A stretch of 64,000 nt of DNA from Raillietiella orientalis (GCA_036172245.1 JAYWIR010000106.1:1-64000), one strand, 5' to 3'. Shown: positions 3,001 to 39,569, counted from the first letter of the stretch. Made by a program: numbers and translations. The notes: a model not told the origin generated them from the letters alone.

Positions 3001-3022
3001 ATAAACGCCCGGCGCAACCGGG
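1..3022 (+). mobile_element. L1/Tx1-like non-LTR retrotransposon, family 1: 3' part (decayed ORF2 RT, C-terminal zinc finger, C-rich 3'UTR)
   Basis: RT motifs are spread across frameshifted ORFs: KAPGEDG (46..690), then AVDFQKAFD and GIRQGGSLSPFLF (746..1279). YADD is mutated to tag-gcc-gac-gac at ~1248. YLG lies at ~1443 and CGVKETLTHLLMDCP in 2321..2731. A C-rich tract (2820-2945) is followed by AATAAA at 3000 and a small hairpin. Confidence 0.93.
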
Positions 3023-3158
3023 TAGAAACGAAGGGAGAGAACGCGGCGAGCGCACGTTTTCTTGCGGAGCTCCGTTTTCTCTTAACTTTTCGATATCGAC
3101 AGTGTAGAGTGCCGACTCGTTCTGACCACAACCACTGAAGTGGTGCACGCCTAGAACG

Positions 3159-4529
3159 ATGGATGCGGAATCCATCATGGCGTCCACCGAACCTACGCCG
3201 TCCGGTAGCGGACTGGCGGCTGCACCGCCCTCAGGAGCCGAGCGTTCCTGGAGTGATGTGGTGACGGCTTCAACCATCAAGGGCCCACCTCTGATGGAAG
3301 CCGAACTTGCCGCCTATATCCAAGAGGGGTAGAACCCCCTTATCATCTATAAGGTGAGACGGGAGGGTTCTAGACTAGCTGAACAGGAATTCTGTCGAGA
3401 GCTCACTCGTGTCGGTGTTCGCGAGGGTGACCTAAACGGGCTTTTGCCCATGAAAATTACAGGACCCTGGGGCGTCTTCTGCAAGGAAGTGTCGCTGGCG
3501 CAGCGCCTTTTGCAAACCGCGCTTTGCGTGAATGGCGCGAAAACGCTTCCCATCACGGAGGATCGTTCTTTAGTGGTGGAACTTAGTGCGATGCGTCCCG
3601 GCATCAGCGAGAGCAGCGTTAGGGAAGAACTCTCAAAATACGCTACCGTCTACGCGATGTGGCGTAAAAACCTGTCTAGCGACGGTTTCAGGAAGGTGTT
3701 CACGGGTATCCTTTCCACCCGTATCTCTACAACAGAGAAAGGAAGCCTCCCTTACTCGTTGCAGGTGGAGGGAACCAGGGTAGACCTCCGGTTTGTTGAC
3801 AAACCTCAAGTGTGCGGGGTATGCCATCAGACGGGGCATCCTCAAACAAGATGCCCGTCTGTGCGTTGCTCAGGGTGCAACCAATTAAGCCACACTCGCT
3901 CATGGTGCCCCTGGCGAAAGATCAGAACCCCTGCCAAGGATGGCCTAAGGATGAAAAAGGGCGTAACGGAGATCACATCAGCCTCCGAATCATCAGCATC
4001 GCCGGTGGCTATGACCGGCCCTCTAACTACGGAGGAAATCGTCGAAGGGTGGAAGGTGGTTGCGCAAGCGAGCAAACCGCCACACCCCACATCCTCCGGA
4101 AAAAGCAGCCAGCGACACCACTCAGGAGGTGCTCACGTCACAGGACACGGACGGGATCGCCCGTCCCCTAGGGAATCACTTCAGGGCGCTGAAGCCCCGA
4201 ACACCGAGACGACCAGAAGACGTCTTGCCTCAGGGTGTCAGGAGGTAGTTCTGTCCGATTCGAATGCGGAAACCGAAATCTGCCAATCCTCGGACCAACA
4301 AAACATTGCCATTCTGGGCAGATATGGCAAGAGGCGGAAGTGCGAACCGCGTTGCAGCTCAGGAACCCGTGACCAGGTTAGGGCGCCCAGGTGTCTTCGG
4401 TGTCAACAAACGCCGAAGTTACCGCAACTCCTGAACAGCCAATCGCGGAAACCGCGAGCGGTAACGATAACGCGGACGCAGTGGCCGCCCCACACTAGTG
4501 GGAGGGTCCAGATAACACCAATCCCTTAA
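3159..4529 (+). pseudogene. LINE ORF1 (type B; gag-like, two CCHC knuckles) with one premature stop
   Basis: ATG at 3159 is in frame with ORF 3354..4529. A TAG at 3330 replaces the Y of EGYNP. It carries an SWSDV N-terminal motif and the knuckles CGVCHQTGHPQTRC and CSGCNQLSHTRSWC. Confidence 0.88.
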
Positions 4530-4737
4530 TCCTCGAGGCTGCTGGTCTAGAGACACGCAGTGGAACAAACGCCTGCAAGATCGCGGGACCCGTAGAGCTC
4601 GGAATGCAGGACGGAGAGATAGCATCCCCCGTTTGAGCTTCTAAGTGCGGAACAGGGCTAGACAACCCCACCCCGAGATCGCACGAACACACATCGCTCC
4701 CAACGGAAGTGAAGGAGATCCCCGTCTGCGATTCTGA

Positions 4738-5160
4738 CGACTCACACAGCAAGGCAGCGCCTTAATCTTCTGCTTCATGCGGGCAACCGTAGTAGCACAG
4801 GAAGAGCGGGGAAAAAGAAAAAGGTCATGGATCTTCTCACTATGTCTCCCGCTCGGGAAAGCGGCGGCAAACTTGAGGTTACTCAACCAAACAGACAAAC
4901 AAGAACTCCATGAATTTACACGTAGGCTTCGAACCTCCCGCTCCACGATGGCGTTCCAAATATCCCCCCTCCCTCCCTCCCACAGCAGGAAACCCGAACC
5001 CCCCCACAAAACCTCGATTCGTTCCCCACCCCGCTAGTCCCACGCACTTTAGCGGGACAACCAACCGCAATAAATACACGATGGACTTAGGACAAGTTTA
5101 CTGACAAACAACGAATGTGTGAGAACAAGTACAATAAACGTACCTGTGCACCCGTGTATT
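4738..5160 (+). mobile_element. LINE family-2-like ORF2 C-terminal tail plus 3'UTR
   Basis: LIFCFMRATVVAQEE...LGKAAANLRLLNQTDKQEL aligns with LICFIRAALTERE...LATAATKWCFLNQQEKKEL at ~21320-21450. A C-rich tract and AATAAACG at 5133 follow. Confidence 0.75.
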
Positions 5161-5280
5161 AATTCTCCCCCCCAAGGGCGCCGAGGAGGACGAACAAGAT
5201 CTACAGTACATCGATAGCAGCAGTTTCCTTTTAGTGAAGTGTGTGGAGGTTTGGAACCAGGTGGAGGTTCCCCCTCCGTA

Positions 5281-6120
5281 ATGGTGGATCCACCGAAGGA
5301 GGCCGCTTCTGCGGCTTTCGCAGTGGAGGCCGCAGTAGCGAAGACCTCAAGATCCTGGAGTGAAGTCGCGACGGCAGCGGAGGTCGTCGGACCCAAACCG
5401 GACGATGCTGAGGCTATGGCCTATATGGAGCAGGGCTACAACCCAACGCTCCTATACATGGTAGGCAAGGATTCTTCCGAAGCCATTTTTGGAGAATTTG
5501 CCGCGGAGTTCACGCGGGTCGGGGTGAAGGGAGAAGATCTCCTCTCATTGATGCCTCTGGGGAGGACGGGGATTTGGGAGGTACGCTGCAAACGCGCGCA
5601 ACTTTCCCACGCTCTTTTGAGGACCCCGGTGCGCATCAACGATAGGAGAATATTCCCTACCTCGGAGGATCGCTCGTTCGTGATCCAATTGCGAGGCGTG
5701 CCTGCAGAGGCAACGGACGCCGAATTAAGGGAAGCTCTAGGAGCACACGCAGATGTATTCGCTGTATGGCGTAAACCTAACGCGCAAAGCGGATACATCA
5801 ACGTGAATACCGGTATGGCATCGGCCAGAATCTCTGTCGTGGTCAAGAGCCGACTACCCGTTACGATCAATGTGAAAGGTGCCACGGTGCATACGTGGTT
5901 CATCGGGAAACCGAGAATATGCGGTTACTGCGGTGAAACAGGGCACCTAATGCGAAGATACCCAAAGATCAAGTGCCGAAGGTGCGGCACAGAGGGTCAC
6001 ATCGGTAGAGTGTGTACCCAAAAACAAAGTATGCCTAGACCGGCTATTAGGAGGCCGGTTATGGTAGAAGGAACTTCGAGAACCCGACATCTCTGGAGGA
6101 GGCCGCATCCGCGGCTGTAG
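5281..6120 (+). pseudogene. LINE ORF1 (type C), 3'-truncated copy
   Basis: Close paralog of 6123..7490. The first knuckle is damaged (CGYCGETGHLMRRY). The copy switches into a second copy at ~6097. Confidence 0.88.
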
Positions 6121-6122
6121 CA

Positions 6123-7490
6123 ATGGAGGCCGCAGTGGCGACAACTTCGAGATCCTGGAGCGACGTTGCGGCGGCAGCGAAGGTCGTGGGACCAAAGCCT
6201 GAGGATGCGGAGGCTCTAGCCTACATGGAGCAGGGATACAACCCAACGCTCCTATACAAGGTAGGAAAGGCCTCAGCCGAAAATGTTTTTGGAGAATTCG
6301 CCGCGGAGTTCGCGCGAGTTGGTGTAAGTGGGGATGATCTTCTCTCCTTGATGCCTCTGGGGTGGACGGGCATGTGGGAGGTACGCTGCAAACGCGCGCA
6401 GCTCTCGCACGCTCTCCTAAGGACTCCGGTTCGCATCAATGGGAGGAGAATGTTCCCGGTTTCGGAGGATCGTTCCTTCGTAATACAGTTGCGAGGTGTG
6501 CCAGCGGAGGCGAACGACGCTGACATACGCGAGGGATTAGGAAGGAACGTTGAGGTATTCGCTGTGTGGCGCAAACCCAATGCGCAAAGCGGATACCTTA
6601 ACGTGAATACGGGCATGGCGGCGGCCAGAATATCTGTTGAGGCCAAAACGCAATTGCCCGTTACGATTTCTGTGAAAGGTGCTACGGTGCACACGTGGTT
6701 TCTCGGGAAACCAAGAATATGCGGTTTCTGCGGCGAGACGGGACACCTAATGCGAAGGTGCCCGAAGATCAAGTGCCGAAGGTGCGGCACAGAGGGCCAC
6801 ATAGGTAGAGTGTGTCCTCAAAAACAGCGTAGGTCTAGGCAGACTACTAGGATGCCGGCCAAGGAAGAAAGAACTTTGAGAACCCAACATCTCGATGAAT
6901 CCCCTCAGGTCGAGGCCGGGGATAAAGACGGTTGGGTTCTCGTGAGGAGGAAGGAAAGGCCGGAGAAGGCCCGAACGGTGGCACCAATAACTGGCAAGAA
7001 GGTAATAAAGGCGAAACCCCAGAAGGTAAGGCCCAATACCGGAAGCCAGTTGGTGCAGAAGACAAGCACATTCCCTGTTAAGGAGGCAGAGGAAGAGTTC
7101 AAGGAACAGCCCGCGAGCACGCCAGAGAGCGTGCCGAAGGACTCAGAGGCTATGGAGGTCCAGGAGGACAAGAAAAGGCCCGAGCCCGTGGTTGCAGAAG
7201 CAGAGCCTTCAAGGGTCGCTATCTTCATTGCCCCCAAGAAGATCACGCGCAAAGGGCGCGCTCAACTGGAGGACTCCGATGTTGAGTCTGAATGCAGCTC
7301 GAAGGAGGATTCCTTCAGAGTGACAGGCAGGCAGCCTAAGGCACGCAAGTGCCAGGGTGAGGAACCCGATACCATGGAAATACCATCAACCTCAAATAAT
7401 TGTGAGGAGATGGAGACCATGTCCGGGTCAACGCCCCAGGAGGGGTTGTTAATTGAAGAATTTTCAACCCCAACCCAGATGGATTGCTAG
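6123..7490 (+). CDS. LINE family 2 ORF1 (type C; two CCHC zinc knuckles, charged tail)
   Basis: Open 455-aa ORF containing CGFCGETGHLMRRC and CRRCGTEGHIGRVC, directly upstream of ORF2. Confidence 0.9.
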   Translation: MEAAVATTSRSWSDVAAAAKVVGPKPEDAEALAYMEQGYNPTLLYKVGKASAENVFGEFAAEFARVGVSGDDLLSLMPLGWTGMWEVRCKRAQLSHALLRTPVRINGRRMFPVSEDRSFVIQLRGVPAEANDADIREGLGRNVEVFAVWRKPNAQSGYLNVNTGMAAARISVEAKTQLPVTISVKGATVHTWFLGKPRICGFCGETGHLMRRCPKIKCRRCGTEGHIGRVCPQKQRRSRQTTRMPAKEERTLRTQHLDESPQVEAGDKDGWVLVRRKERPEKARTVAPITGKKVIKAKPQKVRPNTGSQLVQKTSTFPVKEAEEEFKEQPASTPESVPKDSEAMEVQEDKKRPEPVVAEAEPSRVAIFIAPKKITRKGRAQLEDSDVESECSSKEDSFRVTGRQPKARKCQGEEPDTMEIPSTSNNCEEMETMSGSTPQEGLLIEEFSTPTQMDC

Positions 7491-7495
7491 CCTCC

Positions 7496-10400
7496 ATGCG
7501 GAAACTCGAGATAGCTGTGTGGAATGTCAACGGGCTATCCGAGCAACGCAAGAGGCTAGCAATCGCGAAGACCCTAGAATCTTTCGACCTCGTACTTCTC
7601 CAGGAGGTACATCTGGTATCACACGAGATAGCACGGGATGTCGAAAGGATTACTGGGTCTGAAATGTTTTGGAGGAGCGGTGCCCTCCACACGAGAGGAG
7701 TGGCATTTCTCCTGAAGCCTAGGGTAAAGCGAACCCTGATAAGCATGCGCTTCGACGACAGGGGCAGAATTGGACAATTAACTCTAAAATGGTCACGAAA
7801 CATAGACCTCAGGGTTACCAATATCTATGCCCCTAGCAGCAACACACCAGTTCCTGAAAGGATCGCGTTTCTGCGAGACCTGAAGGAGAACTGGTGGTCG
7901 AATTGTAACGCCACCACGGCCCAACTAGTCGCGGGGGACTTCAACCTTCCACTCGCGCAAAATAGCAGGAAAGGAGGCCCGCTTTGTGCACACTGGCGCG
8001 ACGCGCTGGCCAGCATACACACAAAGAACGTATTGGACTGCAGTGTGGAGAACTCCAAGGCAATTGACCATGCCTTCCTCGACGAGCACCTGCATGGGCG
8101 GGTCAACAGGAGAGGTAGGATACGGTCAATATTATCCGACCACCCTAGGCTGGAGCTGGAGACTCTACCCAGGAACAAAGGCCCTGGGTTAGACATCTGG
8201 AGGATGCCAAGCGGTTGGTGGAGGACCAGGGATGTCAAAGAACACATGAAAGACTTCCTGAGCTCCCAACGAATTACGAAAACAGATGACTGGGATATAC
8301 TCAAGGAAGGCATACGCGACTTATGCTGCAGGTTCCCTCGGTCCGAGCTCCCTAGGGGCTTTGGCGAGGAAGAAATAAGACCCGTATACCACTCCTGCTT
8401 GGGACAGGTATACTGGCGGCCAAATATGCAGGAGCTCTCCCTGTACAAAGCGCACAAAGAACGTCAGGCGCTTCAGAGGAGTGCATGCACACTCTTGAAC
8501 CATCAGGGAGAGGCAAGGAAAAATCCCCAAGACATCATTGGGATCGTCCGCCGCTACTACACGGCGCTATACAGCGAACGGGAGATAGACTGGCAAAGAG
8601 CACAGTCTTTAATAGAGGGGGAGGTAGCGAAGCTCGATCCGGAGAGCGAGCATACACTGAGCACCCTGTTCACCCCAGCCGAGATTCTGGAGGGAATAAA
8701 ATCCCTCAAAAAGAGGAAAGCGCCCGGCGAAGATGGAATCCCGGCGGAATTTTACCGCTGTTATGCCGTGGAACTAGAACCTCTCATATCCCAACTTGCA
8801 AAATGCATGTGGGATACAGGGAAGGTTCCAACATCTTTTCGCTCTTCCAGGATGAGACTGATCCCGAAGTCGGGAGATCTCAGGTCTCTAGCAAACTGGC
8901 GCCCCATCACCTTGGTGAATGGGGACGCCAAACTATTTTCCAAGTTGTGGGCCAACAGGCTCAGAAGGCTGGCAAGCACCCTGGTAAACAGCCAACAAAC
9001 ATACGCGGTACCTGGTAGGAGCATGGATCTCAACCTGATCCAGGCATACTCCTGGTACGCTGCAAGGGGTTCGCAGGGTCATATCGCTGTGGCGGTAGAC
9101 TTCGCGAAGGCCTTTGACTCCGTCAACCAGAAGGTGCTTTTAGCGCTTCTGGAACGCATGCGCGCACCATCGGCGCTTCTGGCGTTTCTGCGCGGCTGCT
9201 GGCGGGGAGCGCAAGTCAACATCTTATACGGCAGCAGAACGATCTACGGAGTTCCAGTGAGGAGGGGCATCAGGCAGGGGGATAGCCTCAGTCCTCTCCT
9301 ATTCAGCTTATACTCCAATTTGATCGTGAATACCTGCAAGTCTAAATTGTGAAGTGACCCCTCCAGGGTGGGTCCCACATCCCCAGGGATATCGGCCTAC
9401 GCCGATGATCTACTTTTGCTCCTTGATCCCGCAACCCCCCCATCGGCACTGCAACATCTGTACAAAGAGTTGCACCGTGGAACGGGACTTCAAGTGAACG
9501 AAAGCAAAACTTTAGTACTGATCAAATCGCCGACTGCTCAGCAGACGGAAACCTGGACATAAGCCGGTATGAAGATTACCTCCCGTTTACAATACCTGGG
9601 TGCTCCGATAGGCAGTATTAATCAGGTACAAGAATGGAGAAAGGTGCATAGCACAATAGAGAACTCCCTGGCCACGCTAGAAGATCTTGAACTCCTTCTC
9701 CCGGAGCGTGTGGCAGCATGGAATTCATTCCACGCTCCTAAAATGAGAGCACTTCTATTCGTTTGTCCCATTCCCAAGGGGATGCGCAAACTCTTCAGAG
9801 CTGCAATGCGCAAGGCCCTTTGGGGAAACGGGCGATCTCGAATCAGGTTGAAAGACCTGGGAACATCGAAAGTCAAAGCGGGACTCGATCTCATTACACC
9901 GGAGATACTGAGCACCCAAATTTCATTAAGAATGCTGGAACTCGCCGCAGAACAGTGGGAGGAGCACTGGTTTCAATATGCGAGAGAAATGCTGCAGTCT
10001 GCATGCGGTAGCACCAATCTGGCGTGCTTGGCCGCACCAGGAACATCAAGCAGACTTTTAAGCCCTCTAAAGGAGATGTCCGCCCTGCTGACAAAACATC
10101 CGCAATGAAAATGCAGGCAGCAGAACTATCAAGCGCTACGGACGCTTACAATTGAATATTGGCTTCGCCTCAACGGAGAGGAAGAACAGTCACTACGTCA
10201 AAGGCTTCACCGCCTAAGAAAGATGACAGTCGCGCAGGTGGAGGAATCCTCGAGAGCTAGACTCAGATGGTCGGGTTCCCTGCTTGCCCAAGAGTGCTAC
10301 ACTCTAAAACATCGATGCGACTCTGCTTTACCTGCAAGGTGGTCCGTCACAACAAATACGGGCGGATCCAATCTTTCCACGCGACGCTGCAGGTCGTACC

Positions 10401-10900
10401 AGATAGCAGCTGAAATCCAACCAGCGAAAATCCCGGAGGGATTCAGAAGGTGGCAAAAATACTAAACGTGCCCCCCAGTGTCATTGCCACACCAACAATG
10501 CTCCATGAGGACAGAGGGATACCTCTCAAGGCCCAACACTCCCTGGGACTGGTCATACATGGGGCAGTTCCCAGGAACGCCCAACTGATACACCTCAACC
10601 CGCACACAAGCAGCGCAAACTGCAGCAGATGTGGCCAAAAAGAAACATTGGAACACCTGCTGCTGGACTGCGAAGCCCTACAACAGGCATGGAAACAGGT
10701 TGCAGAGGCAATGTTAATGCCTCAGGATACTGCGAGGGACCTACTCTCTGACTCTTCAGTCCCGACAGGCTAACGAAGCCGTGCAGAACCTTGATGTTCT
10801 GTTTCATCCGGGCAGCCATGATAGCGTGGGCGGAACAAGAAAAGAACAAGACCAGGAATTTTTTACAGATATGCCACACGCTAGGAAAGGCCACGAAAGC
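7496..10900 (+). pseudogene. LINE family 2 ORF2: APE endonuclease, RT and C-terminal zinc finger; few lesions
   Basis: APE motifs: WNVNGL, LQEVH, NIYAP, GDFN, IDH, SDH. RT motifs: WRPITL, VDFAKAFD, QGDSLSP, YADD, YLG. In-frame stops lie at 9350, 9560 and 10106, followed by frameshifts. Zinc finger: CSRCGQKETLEHLLLDC. Confidence 0.95.
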
Positions 10901-11513
10901 GGAGGGAGTATAAACCCCAACTGTGACTACTGTGGAGGGATAGACACCCTGCTCCACATACTGATGTATTGCCCGGCGAAACAATCCAATGGAGTCATCT
11001 CTGCCGGTTAATTGGACTTCCAAACAAAGATGCCAGAAGAATAACGCGCCAATTTTTCGTGCGCAATGGTCTATCGGATACTGCGGTGATGGCAACCCTT
11101 TGCTTCCTTCAGGGCATAACAAAAACCAGAATACGCCTCGAGGTAGACCAACGCAGAATCTCTGCGTGGTGCTTCGCAGCACCATTACTCCGTCATGCCA
11201 GGAGACGGACATCGCTTTTTATTCCCGCCACACGTACAGGACTGGCGTGTTACATCGAAAAACTAAATCTAAGGAGGACCGGTCTTGTCGAACATTGCCA
11301 TTTCACCCCCAGCCCCAACATAGTTAACCCTCTCCTCCCCCGTCCCCCACGAACATCTCTCCCCTTCATGCCCACCCAAAGGTCCTATCCCCAGCAAGGT
11401 TCCTCCAAATCACAGACGGGAAGGCATATCACCCCTCCCTTTTCACGCTTCCATCTTACCTTCAATGAAAATTGTACGTTTTGCTTGAAAAATACGTCGC
11501 GGCGCAACCGGGT
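10900..11513 (+). mobile_element. LINE family 1 3' end (zinc finger, C-terminal tail, 3'UTR)
   Basis: CDYCGGIDTLLHILMYCP...FFVRNGLSD...QRRISAWC matches 2321..2731. It ends in ggcgcaaccgggt, as at 3011-3023. Confidence 0.85.
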
Positions 11514-11650
11514 ACAACAGCCGGCATGTCCGTAGAAGGGAACGGATGTGTTTTTTCGGAGTTTCGTCCCCTCTCCATTTTCGTATAGCGAGATTGTGTA
11601 TAGTGCCGGCCCGCTTTAGCCACATTCCTCGACGGTGTCCACGCCGTGGA

Positions 11651-12511
11651 ATGCTGGAGGCGGTGACTGACAGTGAAGGCGCCCAGACCCCGACTTCGCA
11701 GGGCAAGCAGGCTGCTGCACCGGCTTCAGAAACGATGCGATCTTGGAGCGATGTGCTAACGGCGAAAACCATTAACGAACCACCCCCGATGGAGGCAGAA
11801 CTGGCAGCCTACTTAAAAGAGGGATACAACCGTCCCCTCATCTACAAGGTGAGACGGGCGGGATCAAGATCAGTGGAGCAGGAGTTCTGTAGCGAACTCA
11901 CGAGCGTCGGGGTTCGGGAAGAAAGACATCCAAATCCAATGGCAAACCTACAACTCAGAAATTGGCAAATGGACATCCTCAAAATCATCAGAACCACACC
12001 AGATGCCAGGAAAATATACTGGTTCTACGACCCCATCGGAGGAATCGGCAAAACCACCTTCGCGAAATTCCTCTACCTTAAAAAATCAGCAATCTACATG
12101 CACAGCTGCAAGAAAGCTGATGCAGCACATATTTATCATGGCGAAAGGATCATAATTGTAGACCTCACAAGGGACAACCAAGAAATAGTTCAGTACGGAT
12201 TTATAGAGACCTTGAAAAACGGAATCATCTTCGATTCCGAATATCAAGGATCCATCAAATACTTCGAACCTCCACACATAGTAGTCTTCAGTAACTGGGA
12301 ACCTGACTACTCCAAGATGTCCAGTGACCGATGGGTTGTAAAGAACATAAGCAAATCTGAAGCGACCAAATTGTGTCCATGGATGATCGATGACTCAGGA
12401 CTCGTGCTCCCTTGGGCCTGCCCTTCAGGCCCTAGTACAGGGCAGTCCCGAGACTCACCCGACTCCTCATGCTCCACTTTGTCACCCCCCTCACCAGAAG
12501 TAGACAAATAA
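11651..12511 (+). CDS. Chimeric ORF: LINE ORF1 N-terminus (91 aa) fused in frame to a CRESS Rep SF3 helicase domain (195 aa)
   Basis: ATG at 11651. The ORF1 part (SWSDV...EGYNRPLIYKVRR...VGVREE) runs into the Rep part at ~11924 with no stop. The Rep part has Walker A GGIGKTT, Walker B IIIVDL, motif C VVFSN and DRW. Confidence 0.85.
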   Translation: MLEAVTDSEGAQTPTSQGKQAAAPASETMRSWSDVLTAKTINEPPPMEAELAAYLKEGYNRPLIYKVRRAGSRSVEQEFCSELTSVGVREERHPNPMANLQLRNWQMDILKIIRTTPDARKIYWFYDPIGGIGKTTFAKFLYLKKSAIYMHSCKKADAAHIYHGERIIIVDLTRDNQEIVQYGFIETLKNGIIFDSEYQGSIKYFEPPHIVVFSNWEPDYSKMSSDRWVVKNISKSEATKLCPWMIDDSGLVLPWACPSGPSTGQSRDSPDSSCSTLSPPSPEVDK

Positions 12512-12543
12512 AACTACATTCTATTGCAAGTTTTCCATATTTT

Positions 12544-13467
12544 TCAAGTATACAGGGGAGGGTCTCTTAGATGTTTGAATTCCACATAAAACGTTCGAGT
12601 CAGTCTGTAAATAGGCCAACCCTGAGTTAACAATCCATTTTTAAAACACACACCAGACTGACAACCTTGCTTTATCGAGTCTGGGATATCCACACCAGAC
12701 ATGTGCTTCATCACATGCATACGATTCATAAACATTTCCACCAACAACTCTTGATCCAAACGAGAACCAAAACCACAATCAACCCAAGGACAATGCACAT
12801 AACGCTCCAAATTCCCTCCATAACAATGCATATCCTTCCTTATATAGGCCCTGGAATATAGCCGGATTCCACGAACACCGAAATAACGAACTAAACAGCC
12901 ACTCGTTTCCTTATGACCACTTATCACATCTTCCACCTTGTGATAAGGCATTCCTGCAAGCGATCCAAAAAATTCACCCTGATTGTGAGACTGATACAAC
13001 AAAACATTCCGATAAGACACTTTCATTCCAAACTCCTCAGCCATATTTCCTATCGTTAAATCCAAAGACAACGGTTCGATCTTCATAGCCACTCCACGCA
13101 ACCGTACATATCGATAATAACGACCAAACTCTTGCAAATTCAAATCCGTCAGTATACTTTGCAGATTTCCAGCACTCTCCGAATAAGTAAACATCCAAGA
13201 ACAATTTACATAATCTCCATCACCAGACCTCAACGATGCATAATGCTGCGCATTTAACATTATATCACGCGATACAACGCGCCTCGCACGAGACAGACGA
13301 CCTCGCGGACTAGGATACAATCGCAAACGCCGACGACGATTATACGGACGTCTACGCTTCTTGAAAGTCGAATAGCCACTGCGAGCTACACGCCTCCGCT
13401 TAACAGTTCCACTCGACGACTTCACCCCAAATCGCTTACGACCACGACGACCAACACGTTCAGCCAT
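12544..13467 (-). CDS. cap: CRESS virus capsid protein (circovirus-like), intact, 307 aa
   Basis: Arg/Lys-rich N-terminal arm. YYRYVRLRGVAMKIEP and the C-terminal TFYVEFKHLRDPPL resemble circovirus capsid motifs. Ambisense to Rep. Confidence 0.88.
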   Translation of the reverse strand: MAERVGRRGRKRFGVKSSSGTVKRRRVARSGYSTFKKRRRPYNRRRRLRLYPSPRGRLSRARRVVSRDIMLNAQHYASLRSGDGDYVNCSWMFTYSESAGNLQSILTDLNLQEFGRYYRYVRLRGVAMKIEPLSLDLTIGNMAEEFGMKVSYRNVLLYQSHNQGEFFGSLAGMPYHKVEDVISGHKETSGCLVRYFGVRGIRLYSRAYIRKDMHCYGGNLERYVHCPWVDCGFGSRLDQELLVEMFMNRMHVMKHMSGVDIPDSIKQGCQSGVCFKNGLLTQGWPIYRLTRTFYVEFKHLRDPPLYT

Positions 13468-13549
13468 CTCCGCGGTCGACCCTCAACTGACGTCACAGAT
13501 CCCCTTCCTCCCTACACTATGAGGCTGGTGGCGACACGCCATCCGACTC

Positions 13550-13636
13550 CCTAAGTCTTCCACGACGTCGGATCATGCCACGACCTGCACACGTGGACAA
13601 GTACATCTTGTTCCGCATTCCTAAGTCTTCCACGAC
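13550..13636. repeat. 17-nt direct repeat pair in the viral intergenic region (iteron-like)
   Basis: cctaagtcttccacgac at 13550-13566 and 13620-13636. The repeat is seen directly; its function is inferred. Confidence 0.7.
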
Positions 13637-13709
13637 TGCGGACGAAGACCAGACACCCTCATAAAAAACTTGCAATGTGACACAATTTCCAAGGTTTTGC
13701 CGAATAAGC

Positions 13710-13747
13710 TAGATGCTATCTGGGTAATACTAACCAGATAGCATCTA
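13710..13747 (-). promoter_or_regulatory. Rolling-circle origin stem-loop with nonanucleotide TAGTATTAC
   Basis: Perfect 14-bp stem, tagatgctatctgg (13710-13723) and ccagatagcatcta (13734-13747). The loop gtaatactaa reads TAGTATTAC on the - (cap-coding) strand. A TATA-like tatttata lies at 13764, upstream of Rep. Confidence 0.95.
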
Positions 13748-13827
13748 CTGCGTAGTTACCAAGTATTTATACCACCACAACAAGAGGCACAAACCAGTCT
13801 CAACTCGACAGAATTACCAACCACACC

Positions 13828-14917
13828 ATGCCTTACGGACACTTCATGTACTGGTGCTTCACCCTATGCAACTACTTAGAAAACGAACTCCTCCTGATAA
13901 AAGACTGGTGCAGACGACACTGCACATTCGCAGTTATCGGAAAAGAAACTGCAAGCACCGGCACACCACATCTACAGGGATATTTCCAACTCCGAGATCC
14001 ACGGACTTTACCGAGTTTGAAAAGACCGCCACTCGACAAAGCACACCTAGAGAGAGCAAAGGGAACACCACAGAGCAACTTACGGTACTGCACCAAAGAA
14101 GACCGCGAAGCTTGGACATATGGCCTCATTCAACAAGAAAAAGAAACCAACGACTATCAAGACATGGTAATATCATTTTTTAACTTTACCAAAATAACAC
14201 ATCAAATTTCAGATACTACAGCACATCAAAAATGGAGCTACAGAACTCGATATACTCGAACAACACACCAAGTTCTACTGAAAAAACATCAATTTTATTA
14301 AAGAATGCTTCCGCCTTACACGAAGCAGGACACACCCTAATCCTATGGCCAAATTGCAACTGCGCAGCTCGCAAATGCAAATCCTCAAACTCATCAGGAC
14401 GACACCCGATGCCAGAAAAATTTACTGGTATTTCGACCCAGAAGGAGGCCATGGCAAAACCACATTTGCCAAATTCCTGTACCTCAAAAAGAATGCTATC
14501 TACATGCACTCCTGCAAAAAGGCCGACGCTACCCACATCTACAACGGCGAACACATCATCGTTGTCGATCTAACCAGAGACAATCAGGAGATTGTACAAT
14601 ACGGCTTCATCGAAACAATGAAGAATGGCATCATCTTCGCATCGAAGTATCAAGGATCCATCAAATACTTTCAACCCCCCCACATCATTGTGTTCTCCAA
14701 CTGGGAACCTAACTACGAAAAAATGAGTATGGACAGATGGAGAGTTACAGATATTTCCCTCACTTCACAAAGCAAATTGTGTCCATGGATGTTGGATGAT
14801 GCTGGAGCCATCTTGCCTTGGGCCTGCCCTTCAGGCCCTAGTACAGGGCAGTCCCGCGACTCGCCAGACTCCAGTGAATCCACTTTGTCAGCCCCATCCC
14901 CAGAAGTTGATAAATAA
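13828..14917 (+). pseudogene. rep: CRESS Rep (HUH endonuclease plus SF3 helicase), spliced: exons 13828-14166 and 14213-14917; one premature TGA
   Basis: RCR motifs I FTLCN, II PHLQG and III YCTK; Walker A GGHGKTT, Walker B IIVVDL, motif C IVFSN. Removing the 46-nt GT..TTTCAG intron joins the two frames into ~347 codons, with a single TGA at 14279. AATAAA overlaps the stop. Confidence 0.92.
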
Positions 14918-14945
14918 AAGTACATTCCATTGCAAGTTTCATTTT

Positions 14946-15812
14946 TCAAGTATAGAGAGGAGGGTCTCTTAGATGTTTGAATTCCACATAAAACGTTCGA
15001 GTCAGTCTGTAAATAGGCCAACCCTGAGTTAACAATCCATTTTTAGGACATACACCAGACTGACAACCTTGCTTTATCGAATCTGGGATATCCACACCTG
15101 ACATATGCTTCATCACATGCATACGATTCATAAACATTTCCACCAGCAACTCTTGATCCAAACGAGAACCAAAACCACAATCAACCCAAGGACAACGCAC
15201 ATAACGCTCCAAATTCCCTCCATAACAATGCATATCCTTCCTTATATACGCCCTGGAATACAGCCGGATTCCACGAACACCGAAATAACGAACTAAACAG
15301 CCGCTCGTTTCCTTATGACCACTTATCACATCTTCCACCTTGTGATAAGGCATTCCTGCAAGCGATCCAAAAAATTCACCCTGATTATGAGACTGGTACA
15401 ATAAAAGATTCCGATAAGACACTTTCATCCCGAATTCTTCGGCCATATTTCCTATCGTTAAACCCAAAGACAACGGTTCGATCTTCATAGACATACCACG
15501 CAACCGTACATATCGATAATAACGACCAAACTCTTGCAAATTCAAATCCGTCAGTATACTTTGCAGATTTCCAGCACTCTCCGAATAAGTAAACATCCAA
15601 GAACAATGTACATAATCTCCATCACCAGACCTCAACGATGCATAATGCTGCGCATTTAACATTATATCACGCGATACAACGCGCCTCGCACGAGACAGAC
15701 GACCTCGCGGACTGCGATACAATCGCAAACGCCGACGACGATTATACGGACGTCTACGCTTCTTGAAAGTCGAATACCCACTGCCAGCTACACGCCTGCG
15801 CTTAGCAGTTCC
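14946..15812 (-). pseudogene. cap: Second capsid copy, lacking the first ~19 codons
   Basis: Near-identical to 12544..13467. It is cut at the LINE junction at ~15812. Confidence 0.9.
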
Positions 15813-16410
15813 TGCTAGGGCTTTCGCTCATGAAAATAAGAGGAGCCTGGGGCGTCTTCTGTAAAGAAGCGTCACTCGCTCAGCGTCTGTTGCGAACACC
15901 GCTTCGTGTGAACGGCGCAAAAACTCTCCCCATCACGGAGGATTGTTCGTTCGTGGTGGAACTGAGTGCGATGCGTCTGGGCATCAGTGAGAGCAACGTT
16001 AGGGCGGAACTCTCTGAATTCGCAAGTTTACGCGATTTTACTGCCTAAAAATCTGTCTAGCGACAGTTTCCGGAGGTTTACACGGGCGTTCTGGCCGCAA
16101 GAACTTCCGTTACGGTCAAGGGTAGCCTTCCCCATTCGTTCCTCATGGATGGGGCCGGGGTACACCTTTGGTACATAGGAAAACAGCAGGTGTGCCGTAT
16201 ATGTGGGCGTTCGGACCTCTCCAAACGAGATGGCCTACGATCCGCTGCTCAGGGTGCCATGAACTGGGCCACACTCGTCCCTGGTGCCCCCACCGCAGAA
16301 GCAAGGACTCTGCCGAAAGAGGGCGAACTAACAAGTGCATTGAGACGGAAGCGGTTCCGGCGCCCGATGCAAATTCCACGTCGGCGGCGCTACGCAGTTT
16401 GCTACGCAAT
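15811..16410 (+). pseudogene. Continuation of the LINE ORF1 interrupted by the virus (frameshifted)
   Basis: LLGLSLMKIRGAWGVFCKEASLAQRLL corresponds to DLNGLLPMKITGPWGVFCKEVSLAQRLL in the uninterrupted copy. The knuckle CSGCHELGHTRPWC follows. Confidence 0.88.
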
Positions 16411-16414
16411 CGGC

Positions 16415-16590
16415 CAATAAATAAACCACCAACACCATCCGCACCACCGTCTTACCTCGAATGAATTTCGCCAACAGCCAACATGCCGTATGCACTATTT
16501 TTCAACTGGTGTCTCACATTATGAAATTATTCAGAAGAATTTAAAGCTATAAAGCAGTGGTGCCGCTGCATTTGCATCTTTGCCTGCATT
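16415..16590 (+). pseudogene. rep: CRESS Rep 5' leader and N-terminal fragment from another viral variant
   Basis: ATG at 16483 gives MPYALFFNWCLTL*NYSEEFKAIKQWCRCIC, compared with MPYGHFMYWCFTLCNYLENELLLIKDWCRRHC at 13828. The upstream leader also resembles 13764-13827. Confidence 0.8.
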
Positions 16591-17620
16591 TGCCTGCAGC
16601 GCACAGTTGCATCCGCGGTATTTTGGCGGTTTGGAGTGGATCCAACGAAGTAGAGGATGCAAACGAAAGGAGTATGCAGCTCGCATTCTGCGAATAGCAA
16701 CCCGATCGCCCCACTTGGGAAACAAGCAGAACCTCGTCGGCATCCTGCAAAAGATGGAGACTCTACAAAGCGGACAGTAATCCCTTCCCGACCCTCCAAA
16801 TAACCATGGTTTTTTTTTCAGTTTTCTTTCATTTTTATTTTTCCCACCCTATCTGCTAACGTGGAGTGTCAAGTCGGTCTGCGCACCGACCACCCGGCAG
16901 TTCCCTAGTGCTATTGGCTGCAACGGGGCCTTGTACAGCAAATACAGAATGTTTTAATAAACGCCCCGGCTTGAACGGGTGAAAAAGTCGGCGGTAGGCA
17001 ACGAATCCTGTCGGAGGACGAAATCGCCGGGAGATGAAATCGCGCACGAGCAAGCATAAGCTACTGCAAGCGACATTAACCAAAAGTAAAAACCTACTGT
17101 GCCCTGTTAAGGATGGAATCGCAACCCAGGACCTGGATGGATTTATACGTTCCCTGGGAAACAAACATTTCTGGGCACATAAGCCGAGACTCAATGGCCA
17201 GACCACCAGAAGGCGTCGCGCCTCAGGGTCACATGAGATGACCCTGTCCGATTCGGACGAGAACGAAATCCGATCCAAATCGGAGAATAAAAATATAACT
17301 ATTCTAGGCAGACAACGCAAGAGTCGCAAACGCAAACTGCGATGTGACTCGGGAGCACTGGACTGCGAAAGAGAGATGTCCTGTGGATCACGGAACAGCT
17401 CTCTTCTATAGCTCCGTCGGTCGTTCTCCGCATTGAAATTCCCGAGGTTACGTCGACTCGACGAGCAAAAGACGCGGACGCGCAAGCGGTTCAGGAGTCA
17501 GCGTCTGCGAACGCTATCGCAACTCAACTCGCGAAGGCAGAAAACGCCGCAAACAACACCGACGTTGTAGCGGCGCCACACATCATGGACGACGCAGGGG
17601 CTGCGGCCGCGCAGTAGTCT
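16590..17620 (+). mobile_element. LINE fragments: a probable 3' end (AATAAACG plus hairpin at 16956) and an ORF1 type-B C-terminal piece
   Basis: 17200-17370 (TRRRRASGSHEMTLSDSDENEI...ILGR) matches 4205-4370. The terminal motif resembles the one at 3000. Confidence 0.6.
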
Positions 17621-17631
17621 GCGTTAGAGTC

Positions 17632-18513
17632 TGGTTAAGAGAAAAATTTTCTTATGCAATACTAGCAAAAGAAATTGGTATTCAAGGAACCAAACATATT
17701 CAAGGATACTTTCAACTAATAGATCCAACAACACCAAAACTAAAAAAAGTAATGGAATTCAGACGAGCAAACATAGAATCAAGCAGAGGAACTCCAAAAC
17801 AAGCTGCAGATTACTGCACGAAAAAAGACAAAGAACCTTGGATATATGGACTACTACAAACAGAAATTAAAATCTACAAACAGGTACAAAAAATTAATTA
17901 CATATAAAAAACATATTTCCAGGCACAAGATTGGATACACAATGGAAAAATTGAGAAATGGATATGGAAAGAAAAGCCTGATATATACGACAAACATGGA
18001 CAATTCATAAACGACACCATTCGATTCACAAAATCCTCTAATCAACATCCAATGGAAACAAAGACTTTACAATGGCAAAAGAATTTAATTGACATCATTT
18101 CCACTGAACCCAACGATAGACATCCACTGGTTCACCGATTACCAGGGCAATTCAGCAAGACAACAATTGCAAAACACATATATATAAAGTATGATGCTCT
18201 TTACTTAAAGAACTGCAAAAAAGCTGATGCCACTTATATGTACACTGGACAGAAGATAGTTATCATAGACCTCACAGAAGATGTACAAGAGATGATAAAT
18301 TATGGATTGATAGAAACCATAAAAAATGGCATACTATACTCAACAAAATATCAAGTTAAATGTTCTCAATTCCACGACAGCATTTTCGCAAACATGGATC
18401 CTAATTATGAAAAAATTAGTTCTGATAGATGCATAGTTCATTTCATCAATGAGAGAAATAAACAGACTACAAATCGTATCATAATATGTATTCTCCAGAA
18501 GGTTAATATTTAA
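17632..18513 (+). pseudogene. rep: Divergent AT-rich CRESS Rep relic with a 39-nt intron (17884-17922)
   Basis: KHIQGYFQL (motif II), DYCTK (motif III), degenerate Walker A, IVIIDLT, GILYSTKY, FAN. The intron contains an in-frame TAA. Confidence 0.88.
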
Positions 18514-18658
18514 TATCTCTGGCTCCTTTAAATTGAAAATGAAATTTTCTCCAAATTCGAAACATTGGTGCATCTTTGTTAATCACTTGCACTTTCTTAA
18601 TAGTTTTCTCTTGCGAACACTCAGTTGGTACCTTGTATCCAACAACGTATTTAGCAAA
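18503..18658 (-). pseudogene. cap: Capsid C-terminal fragment convergent with the 17.6-kb Rep
   Basis: KYVVGYKVP...PMFRIWRKFHFQFKGARDIKY* compared with KHMSGVDIP...PIYRLTRTFYVEFKHLRDPPLYT*. Confidence 0.72.
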
Positions 18659-19109
18659 GTTGGGATGCCCGACCCGTACAATCGGCCGACGATGGAACGA
18701 TGCTGTTTCCGTACGTTTTTAATCATCTTGATTCCCGACTTTGGGGACTGGTCATCGGGGCATGCGCGCCCAGCTACCAGGTCGGACCAATAGCACAATG
18801 GTCGGTCGCGACAATGGCAAGGCTGACCGTGCTAGGCGGACCCATGTGGGTGATGATCGTGCTCACCAATGTATCCACCCGCGTACGATCAGACACATGG
18901 CGAATGGGGTGCAGAAGGCAGGGCGTGGATATCCCAGTATGGAACGGAGCCGTCGCATTACGAGAGGCTGGCATTGATGCCAACGTTCTTGGAATGGTTT
19001 GGCATACCGGTTGCCAATCCGTGGGTTTCACGTGACCTCGGTGTGGCGTGGAACCTGCTGGCTAAGCGTACCAGGCTGGGCATTCGTGGGAGCCGGATGA
19101 ATGCCCTGG

Positions 19110-21857
19110 CCAGCGAACCGCGCGAGATAGACTGTCAAAAGGCACAGTCACTTATAGAGGGGGAGGAAGCCAAGCTCGACCCAGAGGGCGAGCTAGCACT
19201 GAGCTCACAGTTCACCCCAGCGGAAATTAGGGAGCGAATTAAATCCCTCAAAAACAGAGCACCGGCAGAGGATGGAATTCTGGCGGAATTCTACAGCTGC
19301 TTCGCCGCGCAATTAGAACCGCTCATATCCCAACTTGCTAAATGCACGCGGGATACAGGTAAGGTTCCAACATCCTTTCGCTCGGCCAGGATGAGATTGA
19401 TCCCGAAGTCGGGAGATCTCAGGTCTTTAGCAAACTGGCGCCCCATCACCTTGGTGAATGGGGACGCCAAACTGTTTTCAAAAATATGGACCAACAGATT
19501 AAGGAGGATGGCGGACACTCTGGTGAACAGGCAGCAAACTTATGCCGTACCAGGTAGAAGCATGGATCTTAACTTGATCCTAGCCTACTTCTCGTATCAA
19601 GCACGAGGCGCGCCAGTTCCATTGCTGTGTCCGTGAACTTTGCGAAAGCCTTTGACTGCGTTAATCAAGAGCTGCTACTTGTGCTACTGAGTCGCATGCG
19701 TGCACCATCGGCGCTCTTAGCATTTCTCCGCAGTTGTTGGCGAGGCACTCAGGTCAACATCACTTATGAAAGCAGCACGATCTACGGAGCTCCGGTGAGG
19801 AGGGGCATCAGGCAGGGGGATAGCCTGAGCCCGCTCCTGTTCAGTATCTACTTCAACTTGATCGTGAAGACCTGCAGAAATGTGCTATCCAAAGACACCC
19901 CCAGGGAGGGTCCCTTTTCGCCCGGGATTTCGGCGTACGCCGACGACCTATTGTTGTTCCTTGACCTCTCGACACCCCCATCGACACTTCCGCAAATCTA
20001 CAAAGAGCTGCGCAGTGGAACGGGACTACAAGTGAACGAAGACAAGACAGTGGTCGTGATGCCTTCGCCGAACGACCACCAAAAACAATCTGGGAAGACG
20101 CTCACATAGCAACATCGGACAGGTTTAAATACCTAGGTGCACCGATAGGAAACATTAACTCGAAAGAAGAATGGGAGAGGATCCACCGCAGAACTCAGGA
20201 ATCCCTGGCTACGTTGGAGGACCACAACCTCCTTCCGGAACGGGTTGCAGTATGGAATTCATTCCACGCACCGAAAATGAGAGCACTGCTATTCGTGTGC
20301 CCCATACCCAGGGAGATGCGCAAACTCTTTAGAGCTGCAATGCGCAAGGCCCTATGGGGAAGTAGGCGCTCGAAAATAAGACTCAAAGACCTTGTAACAC
20401 CAAAAAAAAAGGCGGGGTTCGATCTCATAACTCCGGAGATACTGAGCACCCAAATAACAATCAGGAAGCTGGAGCTCGCGGCGGAACAGTGGGAGGAGCA
20501 CTGGTTCCGATAAGCAAGGGAAATGCTGCAGTCTGCATGCGGAAGCACCAATATAGCGTGCTTGGCCGCACCAGCAACATCTAGAAGACTCCGAAGTCCT
20601 CTCAGGGAAATGTCTAACCTGCTAAAAAAATATCCGCAAATAAGGTGCAGGCAGGAGAACTACCAGGCGCTGCGGACGCTCACAGTTAAATACTGGATCC
20701 ACCTGAACGATGAAGAACCGTCTCAACGTCATAGGCCATATCGCCTAAGAACGAAGACAGTCGCGCGGGTGGAAGAATCCCCGAGCTAGACTCAGGTGGA
20801 CGGGGTCCCTTCTTGCACAAGAGTGCTATACTCTAAAGCAACGGTGCGACTCTGCATTACCTGCCAAGTGGTCCGTCACGATAAACAGAGGCAGGATCAC
20901 GCTCATCACACGACGGTGCAGATCATACCCGCTAGCAGCAGAAATTCTACTAACGAAAATCACGGAGGGATTCAAGAGATGGACAAGAATACTCAACGTG
21001 CCCCCAATGTCATTGCCACCCCAACAATGTTCCATGAGGACAGAGGGGTACCTCTGAAGGCCCAGCACACGCTAGGGCTCATCATACATGGGGCAGTTCC
21101 CAGGAACTCCCAACTACATCATTTTAACCCGCGCGTCAACAGCGCGAATTGCAGTAGGTGTGGAAATAAAGAAACCTTGGAACACCTGCTGCTGGACTGC
21201 GAAGCGCTGCAACGGGGATGGAAACAGGTTGCAGAGGCAATGTTTATGCCTCAGGATACTGCGAGGGACCTACTCCTGAAGTTCTTCAGTCCCGACAGGC
21301 TCACGAAGCCGAGCAGCACTTTGATCTGCTTCATCCGGGCCGCGCTGACAGAGCGGGAGGAAAAGGTTACGGCCCCCCTCCTGATATGTCGCACACTTGC
21401 AACAGCGGCGACAAAGTGGTGTTTTCTCAACCAACAAGAGAAAAAGGAACTTGTTTCCATAAACAGGCTTCGAGCCACCCCGGCTCACCTAATCGCGGGG
21501 GATTTTAACCTCTCACTCGCGCGGAATAGGCAGAAGGGCGGCCCACTGTGCGCACAATGGCGCGATACGCTAGCAGCGATACACACAGTGAACCTTCTGC
21601 ATCCAGCTCATGATGATTCCAAAGCAATCGACCATGCCTCCCTCGATGAGCTCCTGCAAGGGCGGCTCAACGAAAGGGGTAGGATAGGCTCAATACTGTC
21701 TGATCACCCTAGACTAGAGCTGAAGATTCTGCCCAGGAATAAAGGTCCCGAGCTGAAAATGTGGAGGATGTCAGGCGACTGGATGAGGTCAAGGGAAGCC
21801 AGGAACTTGCTGAGGAGCTTCCTACGTTGGCGATCTCTAGATATAATAGAGGATTGA
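19110..21857 (+). mobile_element. Second, decayed LINE family 2 ORF2 (RT to C-terminus), followed in frame by an APE fragment
   Basis: Colinear with 8570-10900 (WRPITL, QGDSLSP, YADD, CSRCGNKETLEH). From ~21480 it reads HLIAGDFN...SDH, which is APE sequence. Confidence 0.92.
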
Positions 21858-22446
21858 GACCGAAGTCCACGCTCAATCTGGAAACAATACTATAGTTGTT
21901 CTGGGCAGGCAGCCCAAGAGTCGAAAGCGGGAACTGCGATGCGACTCGTGAGCACTTGATGGGGTGAGCAAAATGCCCCGTAGATCACGGGAGAACTCGA
22001 TCTCTAGAGATGCCTCACTCGTTCACCCCGAATACAGGTATGAGTGGACCCCGATCTCGCTCCCTGGAGACGTGGACGCACTGGAGGCTTCAGAACCAAC
22101 GAAAAAACAGCAGTCGCAAATTGAAAAGGTGGAAATGACATATCCTTCGAAGCACGAGATGGGCATGGAGGCCTTAGTAGATACGCCTTTCGCCGCTTCG
22201 AAAAGGATCCCGAGCAAGGCACGTGCGAGCTAGGAGACTCTGATGCAGTTGAACTGTTGCTCTGCGGACGAAACCGTGAGGGTGAGTGGCACACAGTCGA
22301 AGGCGCGGAGGTGCAAAGGGGCTCATCCCGAGGCCTGGAAGACCCATGCTGTGTCGGGCATTCACGAGTCGATGGTACTCGCGTCGAAGTCAACGTCCCG
22401 CGAAGGGGCACATTGAAATTCCAATTCGATAATAGAAACAGAACGC

Positions 22447-22870
22447 TAGCCTCCATGCGAAGACTCAAGATGGCCTTTGGAATCTAAACGGGCCTTGAAG
22501 ATGCAGCAAGCTAGGGATCGCTTCTACCCAGGCCCCTTTTGATCTCGTTCTCCTACATGAGGTACGTCAAGTATCTCACGAAATGGCGAGCCAGATCGAC
22601 AGTCAGGTACTCAAATATTCCGGAGGAGCGGCTTCCCATACACTCGAGGAGTCGCCTTCCTTATTAAACCAAAAGTCGCGCGCGCTAAAAAGCATGCGCT
22701 CTGATGATCCGGGTAGCTTAGGTCAACTCACCCTACGATGGTTGAACAGCATGGAACTCGTGGTGACCAACATATGTCCCAACATAGAACAAAAGCGTGC
22801 GAGAACGCAATTGCTTTTTCCGAGAGCTAGACCGAGAGTGGATCAATGCTCGCGGACTGCACACAGCGCA
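22447..22870 (+). pseudogene. Degraded LINE ORF1/ORF2 junction and APE N-terminus
   Basis: tagcctccatgcg is identical to 7488-7500. The downstream sequence is colinear with 7496-7930. Confidence 0.75.
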
Positions 22871-22879
22871 CCTGGTGGC

Positions 22880-23740
22880 ACAGCGAAAAATATGGGACTA
22901 CCTCCAAAGGTATCACTGCAAAGGGTGTCACTGTCCATCTCCGACGACAGGCTACGATGTTTTGCATTTGACAGTGCTTACTTGGAACCAGCAATAGAAA
23001 GTTAGAAATAGAAAGTCCGGAAAGCATGAAATTTTACTGCTCCAAACTCGACCCATAACCATGGGTTTGAGGATCCGTCGACAATGAAACGGATAATTCA
23101 TACGAAACAAAGGTACTATTCCTCTACACACTTAATCTAATTCCAGCAGTTACAACTGATCAAAGCTGGCTACAACGAAAAGTACTTGCCAGAACACCAT
23201 ATCAGATTCTACTATAGAATGAATACAAAAAGGAATGCTTTTGTCAAAACTGACACTAGACACCTATGAACGGACTACAGCTGAGGGAAGGGCAACTAAC
23301 CATACTAAACATCTTCGAAAAACATGAATCCAAGAAATACAATCTGGATTAAAGACGAGAACGGATACGACGACTAGACTGCCTTCCCGAAATGGCTTTT
23401 CCTGAAGAAATCGGCATTTACCTACAATCATGCAAGAAAAGCAGACGCTGCCCATCTTTTTAACAGGGAAAAAATCAGTTTGATTGATCTCACCAGGGAC
23501 AAAAACCCGTATTGCACGAGTTCTTACTCGTGCAATACGGGTTCATTGAATCATCGAAAATGGCTATAAAATAGGAATCCATAAAATACTTGGCCACTGC
23601 ATAGGTCTTCTTTGTGAAGGTCAACTGATCACCAGACTACTTTGAACAAAGCATCCACTGATGACAGTTTATCACTATTGATGATCCCTCCACAAAAGAC
23701 CAACTTCACTAAGGATAAAGAAGGAAACAACACCTTTTGT
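22880..23740 (+). pseudogene. rep: Heavily decayed CRESS Rep relic with a 34-nt intron (23113-23146)
   Basis: DSAYLEPA, FYCSK, QLQLIKAG, KADAAH, LIDLTRD and VQYGFIE are recognisable despite stops and frameshifts. Confidence 0.8.

Positions 23741-38508: not shown

Positions 38509-39569
<1,061 letters not shown>

Follow-up and report, generated by a model that had tools for sequence, protein, structure and literature searches.

A 64,000-nt stretch of DNA from Raillietiella orientalis (GCA_036172245.1 JAYWIR010000106.1:1-64000), hereafter the window, contains several copies of the gene for the replication-associated protein (Rep) of a CRESS-DNA virus, one whose genome is circular, single-stranded DNA and encodes Rep. 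The three copies that cover the linker just past the nuclease domain are each interrupted there by a very short gap beginning with GT and ending with AG, which an initial annotation had read as a host-sized viral mini-intron. Here we describe the copies and ask whether the gaps are the remains of one viral intron.

Viral copies in the window

Copies 0 and 1 lie in an integrated viral block (11920-15817) inside a long interspersed nuclear element (LINE). Self-alignment of the block shows that 11926-13410 recurs at 14332-15812, giving 1.62 head-to-tail units with a period of 2406 nt, and the order within the block is Rep C-terminal half (Rep-C), Cap, origin, Rep, Cap, with a unit of 2.4 kb. In copy 1, exon 1 (13828-14166, plus strand) encodes an HUH nuclease with the motifs FTLCN, HLQG and YCTK (Pfam Viral_Rep, 5.6e-15) that matches solved Rep nuclease domains (5.7e-14). 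Exon 2 (14213-14917, plus strand) encodes the linker and a superfamily 3 (SF3) helicase with the Walker A sequence GGHGKT (Pfam RNA_helicase, 5.9e-5), and carries one in-frame TGA (14279-14281) that remains after splicing. All the marks by which a CRESS-DNA Rep is recognized, namely rolling-circle replication (RCR) motifs I-III, Walker A and the Rep domain families, were found in this copy. Its stop codon is overlapped by AATAAA (14912-14917), and the Rep and Cap stops are 28 nt apart.

Copy 0 (11926-12511, plus strand) consists of the Rep helicase half only, as an intact open reading frame (ORF) with a Pfam RNA_helicase match that begins downstream of the intron site; it shares 78% amino acid and about 75% nucleotide identity with copy 1. 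The Cap gene of unit 0 (12544-13482, minus strand) is an intact 307-aa ORF starting from Met, and that of unit 1 (14946-15827, minus strand) has its 5' end cut by the integration border. The two are 97% identical in nucleotides, and both match Circo_capsid weakly, with 26.5 and 22 bits on the two opposed ORFs (22 bits for unit 0) against a cut-off of 36.2. The closest Atlas clusters to Cap are Cressdnaviricota capsids, of whose members 14-49% carry Circo_capsid. Between Cap 0 and Rep 1, on the Cap-coding strand, lies an origin-like stem-loop (13710-13747, minus strand) with a 14-bp stem and the loop TTAGTATTAC; the nonanucleotide of the copies is TAGTATTAC. As DNA, the stem-loop folds with -13.2 kcal/mol (z -4.9), and none of 200 shuffled sequences was as stable.

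Copy 2 is 43.5% identical to copy 1 in protein. Its exon 1 (17614-17883, plus strand) is without RCR motif I and retains HIQG and YCTK (Pfam Viral_Rep, 1.8e-9), and its exon 2 (17923-18513, plus strand) encodes the helicase, in which Walker A is degenerate and 3 residues have been deleted. Tail to tail with it lies a C-terminal remnant of Cap (18515-18652, minus strand), to which residues 259-307 of Cap 0 align in tblastn at 26.5% identity (E 4.7e-4, search space of 421 nt). Copy 3 is reduced to a remnant of exon 1 around motif III, with stops (22996-23112, plus strand), and remnants of exon 2 with several stops and frame changes (23147-23570, plus strand); no Cap remnant could be demonstrated beside it by tblastn (best E 1.6). 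Among the three copies that cover the intron site, protein identity is only 27-45%. A six-frame profile scan of the window found no further Rep. A fourth piece of Rep (16483-16590, plus strand), found by tblastn, begins at the start codon and extends to residue ~34; it contains a single stop and shares 57% identity with copy 1. Because about 10 of its aligned residues are also present in copy 2, it cannot simply be the N terminus that copy 2 lost. All Rep copies carry stops, truncations or frame changes, and all are pseudogenes.

Gaps at one site in three Rep copies

All three gaps lie on the plus strand at the positions and in the phase (0) given by the initial annotation. In copy 1 the gap (14167-14212) is 46 nt long, reads GTAATA..ATTTCAG and, when removed, joins YQDM to ILQHIKNG; in copy 2 (17884-17922) it is 39 nt long, reads GTACAA..TTTCCAG and joins IYKQ to AQDWIHNG; and in copy 3 (23113-23146) it is 34 nt long, reads GTACTA..ATTCCAG(CAG) and joins YETK to QLQLIKAG. 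The last length holds with a proviso, as the acceptor is a tandem CAGCAG of the NAGNAG type (23141-23149) at which an end at 23149, for a gap of 37 nt, scores equally well (3.9 bits versus 3.8 bits for 34 nt). Excision restores the reading frame in copies 1 and 3. The gap of copy 2 is in frame and contains a stop, codon 98, which is the sole internal stop of its 300-codon reading and falls within intron codons 91-103.

The distance from the acceptor to a conserved [FI]Y is exactly 22 residues in all three copies, and the distance from the intron back to motif III differs among them by 1-3 residues. All three gaps keep the pattern GTA...TTYCAG, although their sequences are unalignable. Their GC content is below that of the flanking exons in copy 1 (0.22 versus 0.45-0.47), copy 2 (0.18 versus 0.33-0.34) and copy 3 (0.35 versus 0.39-0.40). 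Of the features of a spliceosomal GT-AG intron, a GT start, an AG end, lower GC than the exons and an open frame collinear with intronless homologs were found. Left unspliced, copy 1 reads from 13828 to 14301 as 157 aa, as the initial annotation had noted, and the read-through tails beyond the donor are unlike each other (44 codons in copy 1 and 7 in copy 2).

Fit of the gaps to Rep homologs

A word-based protein search returned one weak match and an exhaustive search 7275 matches, the best full-length ones being only 35-48% identical. From the 150 best of these 7275 matches (E <= 0.001) we drew 77 full-length, intronless homologs of 270-345 aa for a Rep profile. Spliced copy 1 aligned with this profile without a break (hmm 7-302, about 339.5-339.7 bits), its junction falling between profile positions 112 and 113. 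Copy 2 scored about 208 bits spliced and 201.9 bits with the gap retained, in which case the 13 retained codons appeared as an insertion; the badly decayed copy 3 gave weak scores of 13.8 bits spliced and 4.0 bits retained. Among frame-compatible GT..AG pairs within +-75 nt, the proposed pair was the best of three in copy 1 (339.7 versus 335.7 and 310.8 bits) and the best of three in copy 2 (208.0 versus 195.7 and 192.5 bits); copy 3 has 10 frame-compatible pairs, the best two of which are the NAGNAG alternatives.

When the 77 homologs were aligned to copy 1 by tblastn, three gave high-scoring segment pairs that met both joints, leaving out 40-43 nt of DNA while the gap in the query was 0 to -3 residues. 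Four other queries continued in frame 1 beyond the donor with 26-34% identity, which appears to be weak read-through without homology. Since homologs have no residues for the gap in either the profile or the tblastn comparison, they do not align better with the gap translated, as they should if the initial annotation were mistaken. Set against homologs, the gaps are thus supported as behaving like introns.

Relatives of the copies were sought in environmental sequences. A single-protein scan of viral contigs found no close exogenous relative, and a profile search for named Reps brought up nearly always proteins without a name. In classing the environmental loci, which came from a scan with a six-sequence alignment, a Rep was taken as one-frame where it spanned profile positions <=15 to >=290 and as split where the frame changed with contiguous profile coordinates, a rule that is blind to introns of a length divisible by three. 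The 80 IMG/VR loci comprised 36 one-frame Reps, 10 split Reps and 34 that were truncated or had divergent linkers, and the 53 metagenome loci comprised 12, 5 and 36, respectively. The split Reps (15 of the 133 loci) break near profile positions 89-107, ~152 and ~205.

Ten of the IMG/VR loci plus L041 form one clade of 11 leaves (support 0.98), one of them intronless, which is not sister to the clade of the window copies. The split-Rep environmental viruses (L020, L036, L041-L045, L053, L054, L063 and L064, with L095 from the metagenome) resemble the window copies in their Rep domains, with helicase identity of 37-44%, and in having a GT-AG intron in the nuclease-helicase linker. They differ from them in forming a separate clade and in the intron itself: in the six loci where one option was clearly the best (L041, L042, L043, L045, L053 and L064) it measures 59-104 nt, is of phase 1 and falls at the G of GKRNDLE (profile position 105), which places it 8 codons upstream of the site in the window. 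Four further loci (L020, L036, L054 and L063), in which the top-scoring option is probably wrong because its acceptor lies inside a GAG codon, were set aside for these details. These other linker sites indicate that introns arose in the linker repeatedly, at three sites in the 15 of 133 relatives and at a fourth in the window, whose position is its own. Gene callers blind to splicing would consequently split or truncate such Reps.

Three side observations concern the same searches. The loci with an intron before GKRNDLE comprise L041-L045, L053 and L064 from IMG/VR and L095, L092 and L096 from the metagenome. A second group (L104, L106, L112, L113 and L115) has breaks near profile positions 150 and 205. 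The top database match, P0002, is a 354-aa protein, labelled as coming from a Methylococcales metagenome-assembled genome, that reads through two tandem Rep helicase halves; it has the look of a CRESS multimer or integration assigned to the wrong bin.

Host introns

The sole clear host gene found in the window encodes a cathepsin-L-like protein (38512-39870, minus strand; Pfam Peptidase_C1). Its exons, mapped from homologs, join into a stop-free reading of 303 aa, and its introns are 306, 52, 40 and 52 nt long, the three short ones lying at 39165-39216, 38933-38972 and 38715-38766. Host introns of 40, 50 and 52 nt had been reported for the window; those of 40 and 52 nt were borne out, and one of 50 nt was not found. 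The acceptors of these four introns are CATCAG, CTCTAG, CTCTAG and TTGCAG. The nematode-type TTTCAG invoked by the initial annotation occurs at none of the four host acceptors and, among the viral copies, only at the end of the copy 1 gap. With homologs from nematodes, arthropods, molluscs, annelids and a tunicate, the cathepsin-L-like protein shares 49-59% identity, no phylum being singled out. On sequence grounds, the host reads as an animal with some very short introns, possibly a nematode. The description of the viral gaps (46, 39 and 34 or 37 nt) as host-sized is consistent with these data, thinly based as they are on four introns of one gene. The adaptation of the virus family to the host spliceosome that the initial annotation proposed would have the same four introns as its basis.

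Elsewhere in the window, scans for Rfam families and tRNAs gave no matches, and a 465-aa open frame at 55730-57124 (plus strand) has a weak, below cut-off match to Helicase_C and could belong to a host gene or a transposon.

Probable origin of the intron

The copies themselves bear on where the intron was acquired. Between units 0 and 1, Rep-C shows pS 0.72, pN 0.14 and an omega of 0.06, with synonymous sites saturated, and Cap shows dS 0.12 and an omega of 0.13; the two units have therefore diverged under purifying selection. Nucleotide identity within this one block is a mosaic, at ~75% for Rep-C versus ~97% for Cap, as would result from a viral multimer of recombinant or mixed make-up, or from gene conversion at a later time. 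Such mosaics are typical of recombining viruses, so recombinant viral genomes are indicated. When 128 Reps were placed in a tree, copies 0, 1 and 2 grouped together to the exclusion of all others (support 0.96). Copy 2 (GC 0.33) has 286 exon codons free of stops, which suggests divergence under selection followed by fairly recent integration. Taken together, the selection, the mosaic, the exclusive yet diverged clade and the stop-free copy 2 speak for several integrations, all from a single diverse lineage of viruses in which the intron was already present. The view of the initial annotation that the gap is common to diverged viral Reps stands, in that it is present in all three copies covering the site and the copies diverged under selection as viruses. 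We therefore consider it probable, from sequence comparison, that the gaps are one ancestral viral spliceosomal GT-AG mini-intron, kept in endogenous copies of a new CRESS-DNA lineage.

Several points weigh against this reading. The closest sampled relatives (P0145, P0146, P0074 and P0108) are single-ORF Reps without an intron, none of the 133 environmental loci is split at profile position 112/113, and no exogenous virus with this intron is known. The three copies share a common ancestry, hence their splice signals are not three independent observations, and copy 3 contributes just 13.8 bits and an ambiguous acceptor. As the copies are pseudogenes, splicing today may be irrelevant. The host comparison consists of four introns of one gene, one of which is 306 nt long, and the host acceptors are unlike the viral TTYCAG.

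Some of these points would also be expected if the intron had been gained in the host. An old integration would then have been kept as a gene, acquired the intron, been duplicated locally under host-level selection and later decayed. The confinement of all copies to 12 kb, their exclusive clade, the intronless closest relatives and the intron length near that of the short host introns agree with such a history, and with no exogenous intron-bearing member known we still give it a small share of the probability. It accounts poorly, however, for the viral context of every copy that can be judged, i.e., a full Cap and origin in units 0 and 1 and a tail-to-tail Cap remnant at copy 2. Cap is under purifying selection as well, and joint domestication of a capsid gene is hard to explain. 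The Rep-C/Cap mosaic within one block resembles viral recombination rather than local duplication, and although protein identity between copies 1 and 2 is no more than ~43%, the exons of copy 2 are still free of stops. For these reasons we regard gain in the host as unlikely, and acquisition by the virus before integration as the better account.

Even less probable is that the gaps were never spliced at all and are insertions, or products of pseudogene decay, that start with GT and end with AG by chance. In favour of this, all copies are broken elsewhere, and the heavily decayed copy 3 allows 10 frame-compatible GT..AG pairs. Chance does not readily explain, however, an identical codon position and phase in three copies so diverged in protein, the retention of GTA...TTYCAG in gaps that cannot be aligned, the absence of corresponding residues in homologs, or the location of the sole stop of copy 2 within its gap. 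An ancestral insertion that was not spliced would moreover have destroyed the Rep of the ancestor, yet the lineage kept diverging under selection.

Integration into a LINE

The flanks of the viral block, 10878-11919 and 15818-16290, match a paralogous upstream LINE at 2421-3424 (66%) and 3438-3911 (73%), respectively. This paralog represents the empty site, with its two matched sides 13 nt apart (between 3424 and 3438). Further LINE segments, in rearranged order, surround copies 2 and 3. Joined to a LINE whose paralogous site is empty, and carrying disabling mutations, the copies qualify as endogenous elements of CRESS-DNA viruses. In the block, Rep and the opposed Cap occur together with the origin, over more than one unit length head to tail, which argues for a DNA source and not mature mRNA and bears out the initial annotation on this point. 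The near-intact state of units 0 and 1 (Cap 0 whole, Rep 1 with a single stop) might point to contaminating viral DNA or to an assembly chimera fused with host sequence, but this is hardly credible, since both borders of the block break one LINE copy whose sides are collinear with the empty paralog, copies 2 and 3 are truncated, decayed and interspersed with LINE fragments, and the block is a 1.62-unit mosaic rather than a clean circle.

The LINE itself encodes a zf-CCHC ORF1, an APE endonuclease and a reverse transcriptase (2421-10400 compared with 10878-22773). Its segments are collinear with the upstream paralog except for ~4.2 kb lost at copy 2 and some fragments that are out of order, and the Atlas taxa for it are mixed. 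Across the left border of the block, a plus-strand frame (11489-12511) is open for 340 codons, with ~145 LINE ORF1-like codons followed by the Rep helicase half of copy 0; it is a possible chimeric ORF.

Proposed mechanism and significance

By analogy with related viruses, transcription from an origin-proximal promoter would have produced a pre-mRNA in which the mini-intron, of phase 0, sat in the linker just past the nuclease domain. The host spliceosome would have excised it, joining the nuclease domain to the oligomerization and helicase part, and we infer that its short length reflects what host splicing accepts. Translation of unspliced RNA would stop beyond the nuclease domain, after 157 aa in copy 1 and after 7 intron codons in copy 2, and might yield a RepA-like, nuclease-only product. 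Diverged members of the lineage would then have entered LINE-rich animal DNA as DNA, keeping the intron as they decayed into pseudogenes. As they stand, the integrated copies are unable to make Rep. As a general rule, replicative release needs two origins, and with a single origin copy in the block it would not be expected.

It is tempting to speculate, though the odds seem long, that an unsampled virus lineage specific to a short-intron animal uses an intron of 34-46 nt, possibly the shortest in CRESS-DNA viruses, as a switch between a nuclease-only product and full Rep. If so, a RepA/Rep strategy would have evolved independently of the mastreviruses, intron length would be a readable host signature for orphan CRESS genomes, and the LINE that holds the cluster of diverged integrations would be a place where viral DNA is captured, perhaps a locus producing small RNAs. 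The majority of CRESS-DNA viruses have been recovered from metagenomes, with hosts that are not known, and an integrated copy links a lineage to its host; an intron size that matched the unusually short introns of that host would be a second, independent mark, readable from the viral genome. Beyond the intron and the host link, this is an endogenous viral element of the ordinary sort, and Rep introns in CRESS viruses are already known.

Comparison with known systems

Circoviruses and cycloviruses have Rep and Cap in ambisense arrangement and a stem-loop in which NAGTATTAC occurs (motif as defined in PMC8622408), and both features are present in the window block. None of the circovirus helicase motifs WWDGY, DDFYGW and DRYP (listed in PMC3684831) occurs in copies 0, 1 or 2. 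A phmmer search with the Rep helicase half matched no solved Rep at E <= 0.01. With the circovirus helicase motifs absent, no solved Rep matched and a unit of 2.4 kb, we do not place the copies in Circoviridae; they belong to an unclassified CRESS-DNA lineage.

The nonanucleotide of cycloviruses lies on the Cap-coding strand, as it does in the window block, and the near absence of a 3' intergenic region in cycloviruses compares with the 28 nt found here. Further likenesses are the small ambisense Rep/Cap genome, TAGTATTAC atop a stem-loop and a GT-AG intron in the Rep ORF (PMC3684831, PMC8622408). The cyclovirus rep introns described there are longer than the 34-46 nt of the window: one of 166 nt (PMC3684831) and a putative one of 56 nt in an account that places introns in various cycloviruses (PMC8622408). 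In open-access text we found no report of a Rep intron below 50 nt, or of intron length as a mark of the host.

In mastreviruses, splicing joins the nuclease and helicase parts of Rep, with RepA as the short product, and mastrevirus and genomovirus introns are longer than those of the window. In the window copies, too, unspliced RNA would stop soon after the nuclease domain. The initial annotation had also named genomoviruses and some cycloviruses as users of spliced Reps, and here the published accounts agree (PMC3684831, PMC8622408, PMC11052389, PMC11463337); they describe Rep introns in genomoviruses and geminiviruses, with splicing needed to join the two parts of the genomovirus Rep (PMC11052389), and report finding none in Smacoviridae or in the genus Circovirus (PMC11463337). 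The window copies differ from these systems in virus family and host, and copies 1 and 2 have no conserved read-through tail in common.

Endogenous CRESS elements have been described in mites, helminths and protists, and like the window copies the CRESS or circovirus-like elements of invertebrates comprise Rep with or without Cap in chromosomes, often in fragments (PMC6186406). The window differs from them in that three or more divergent members of a single lineage are clustered within 12 kb, inside one rearranged LINE, and in that the mini-intron has been kept in every copy that covers its site.

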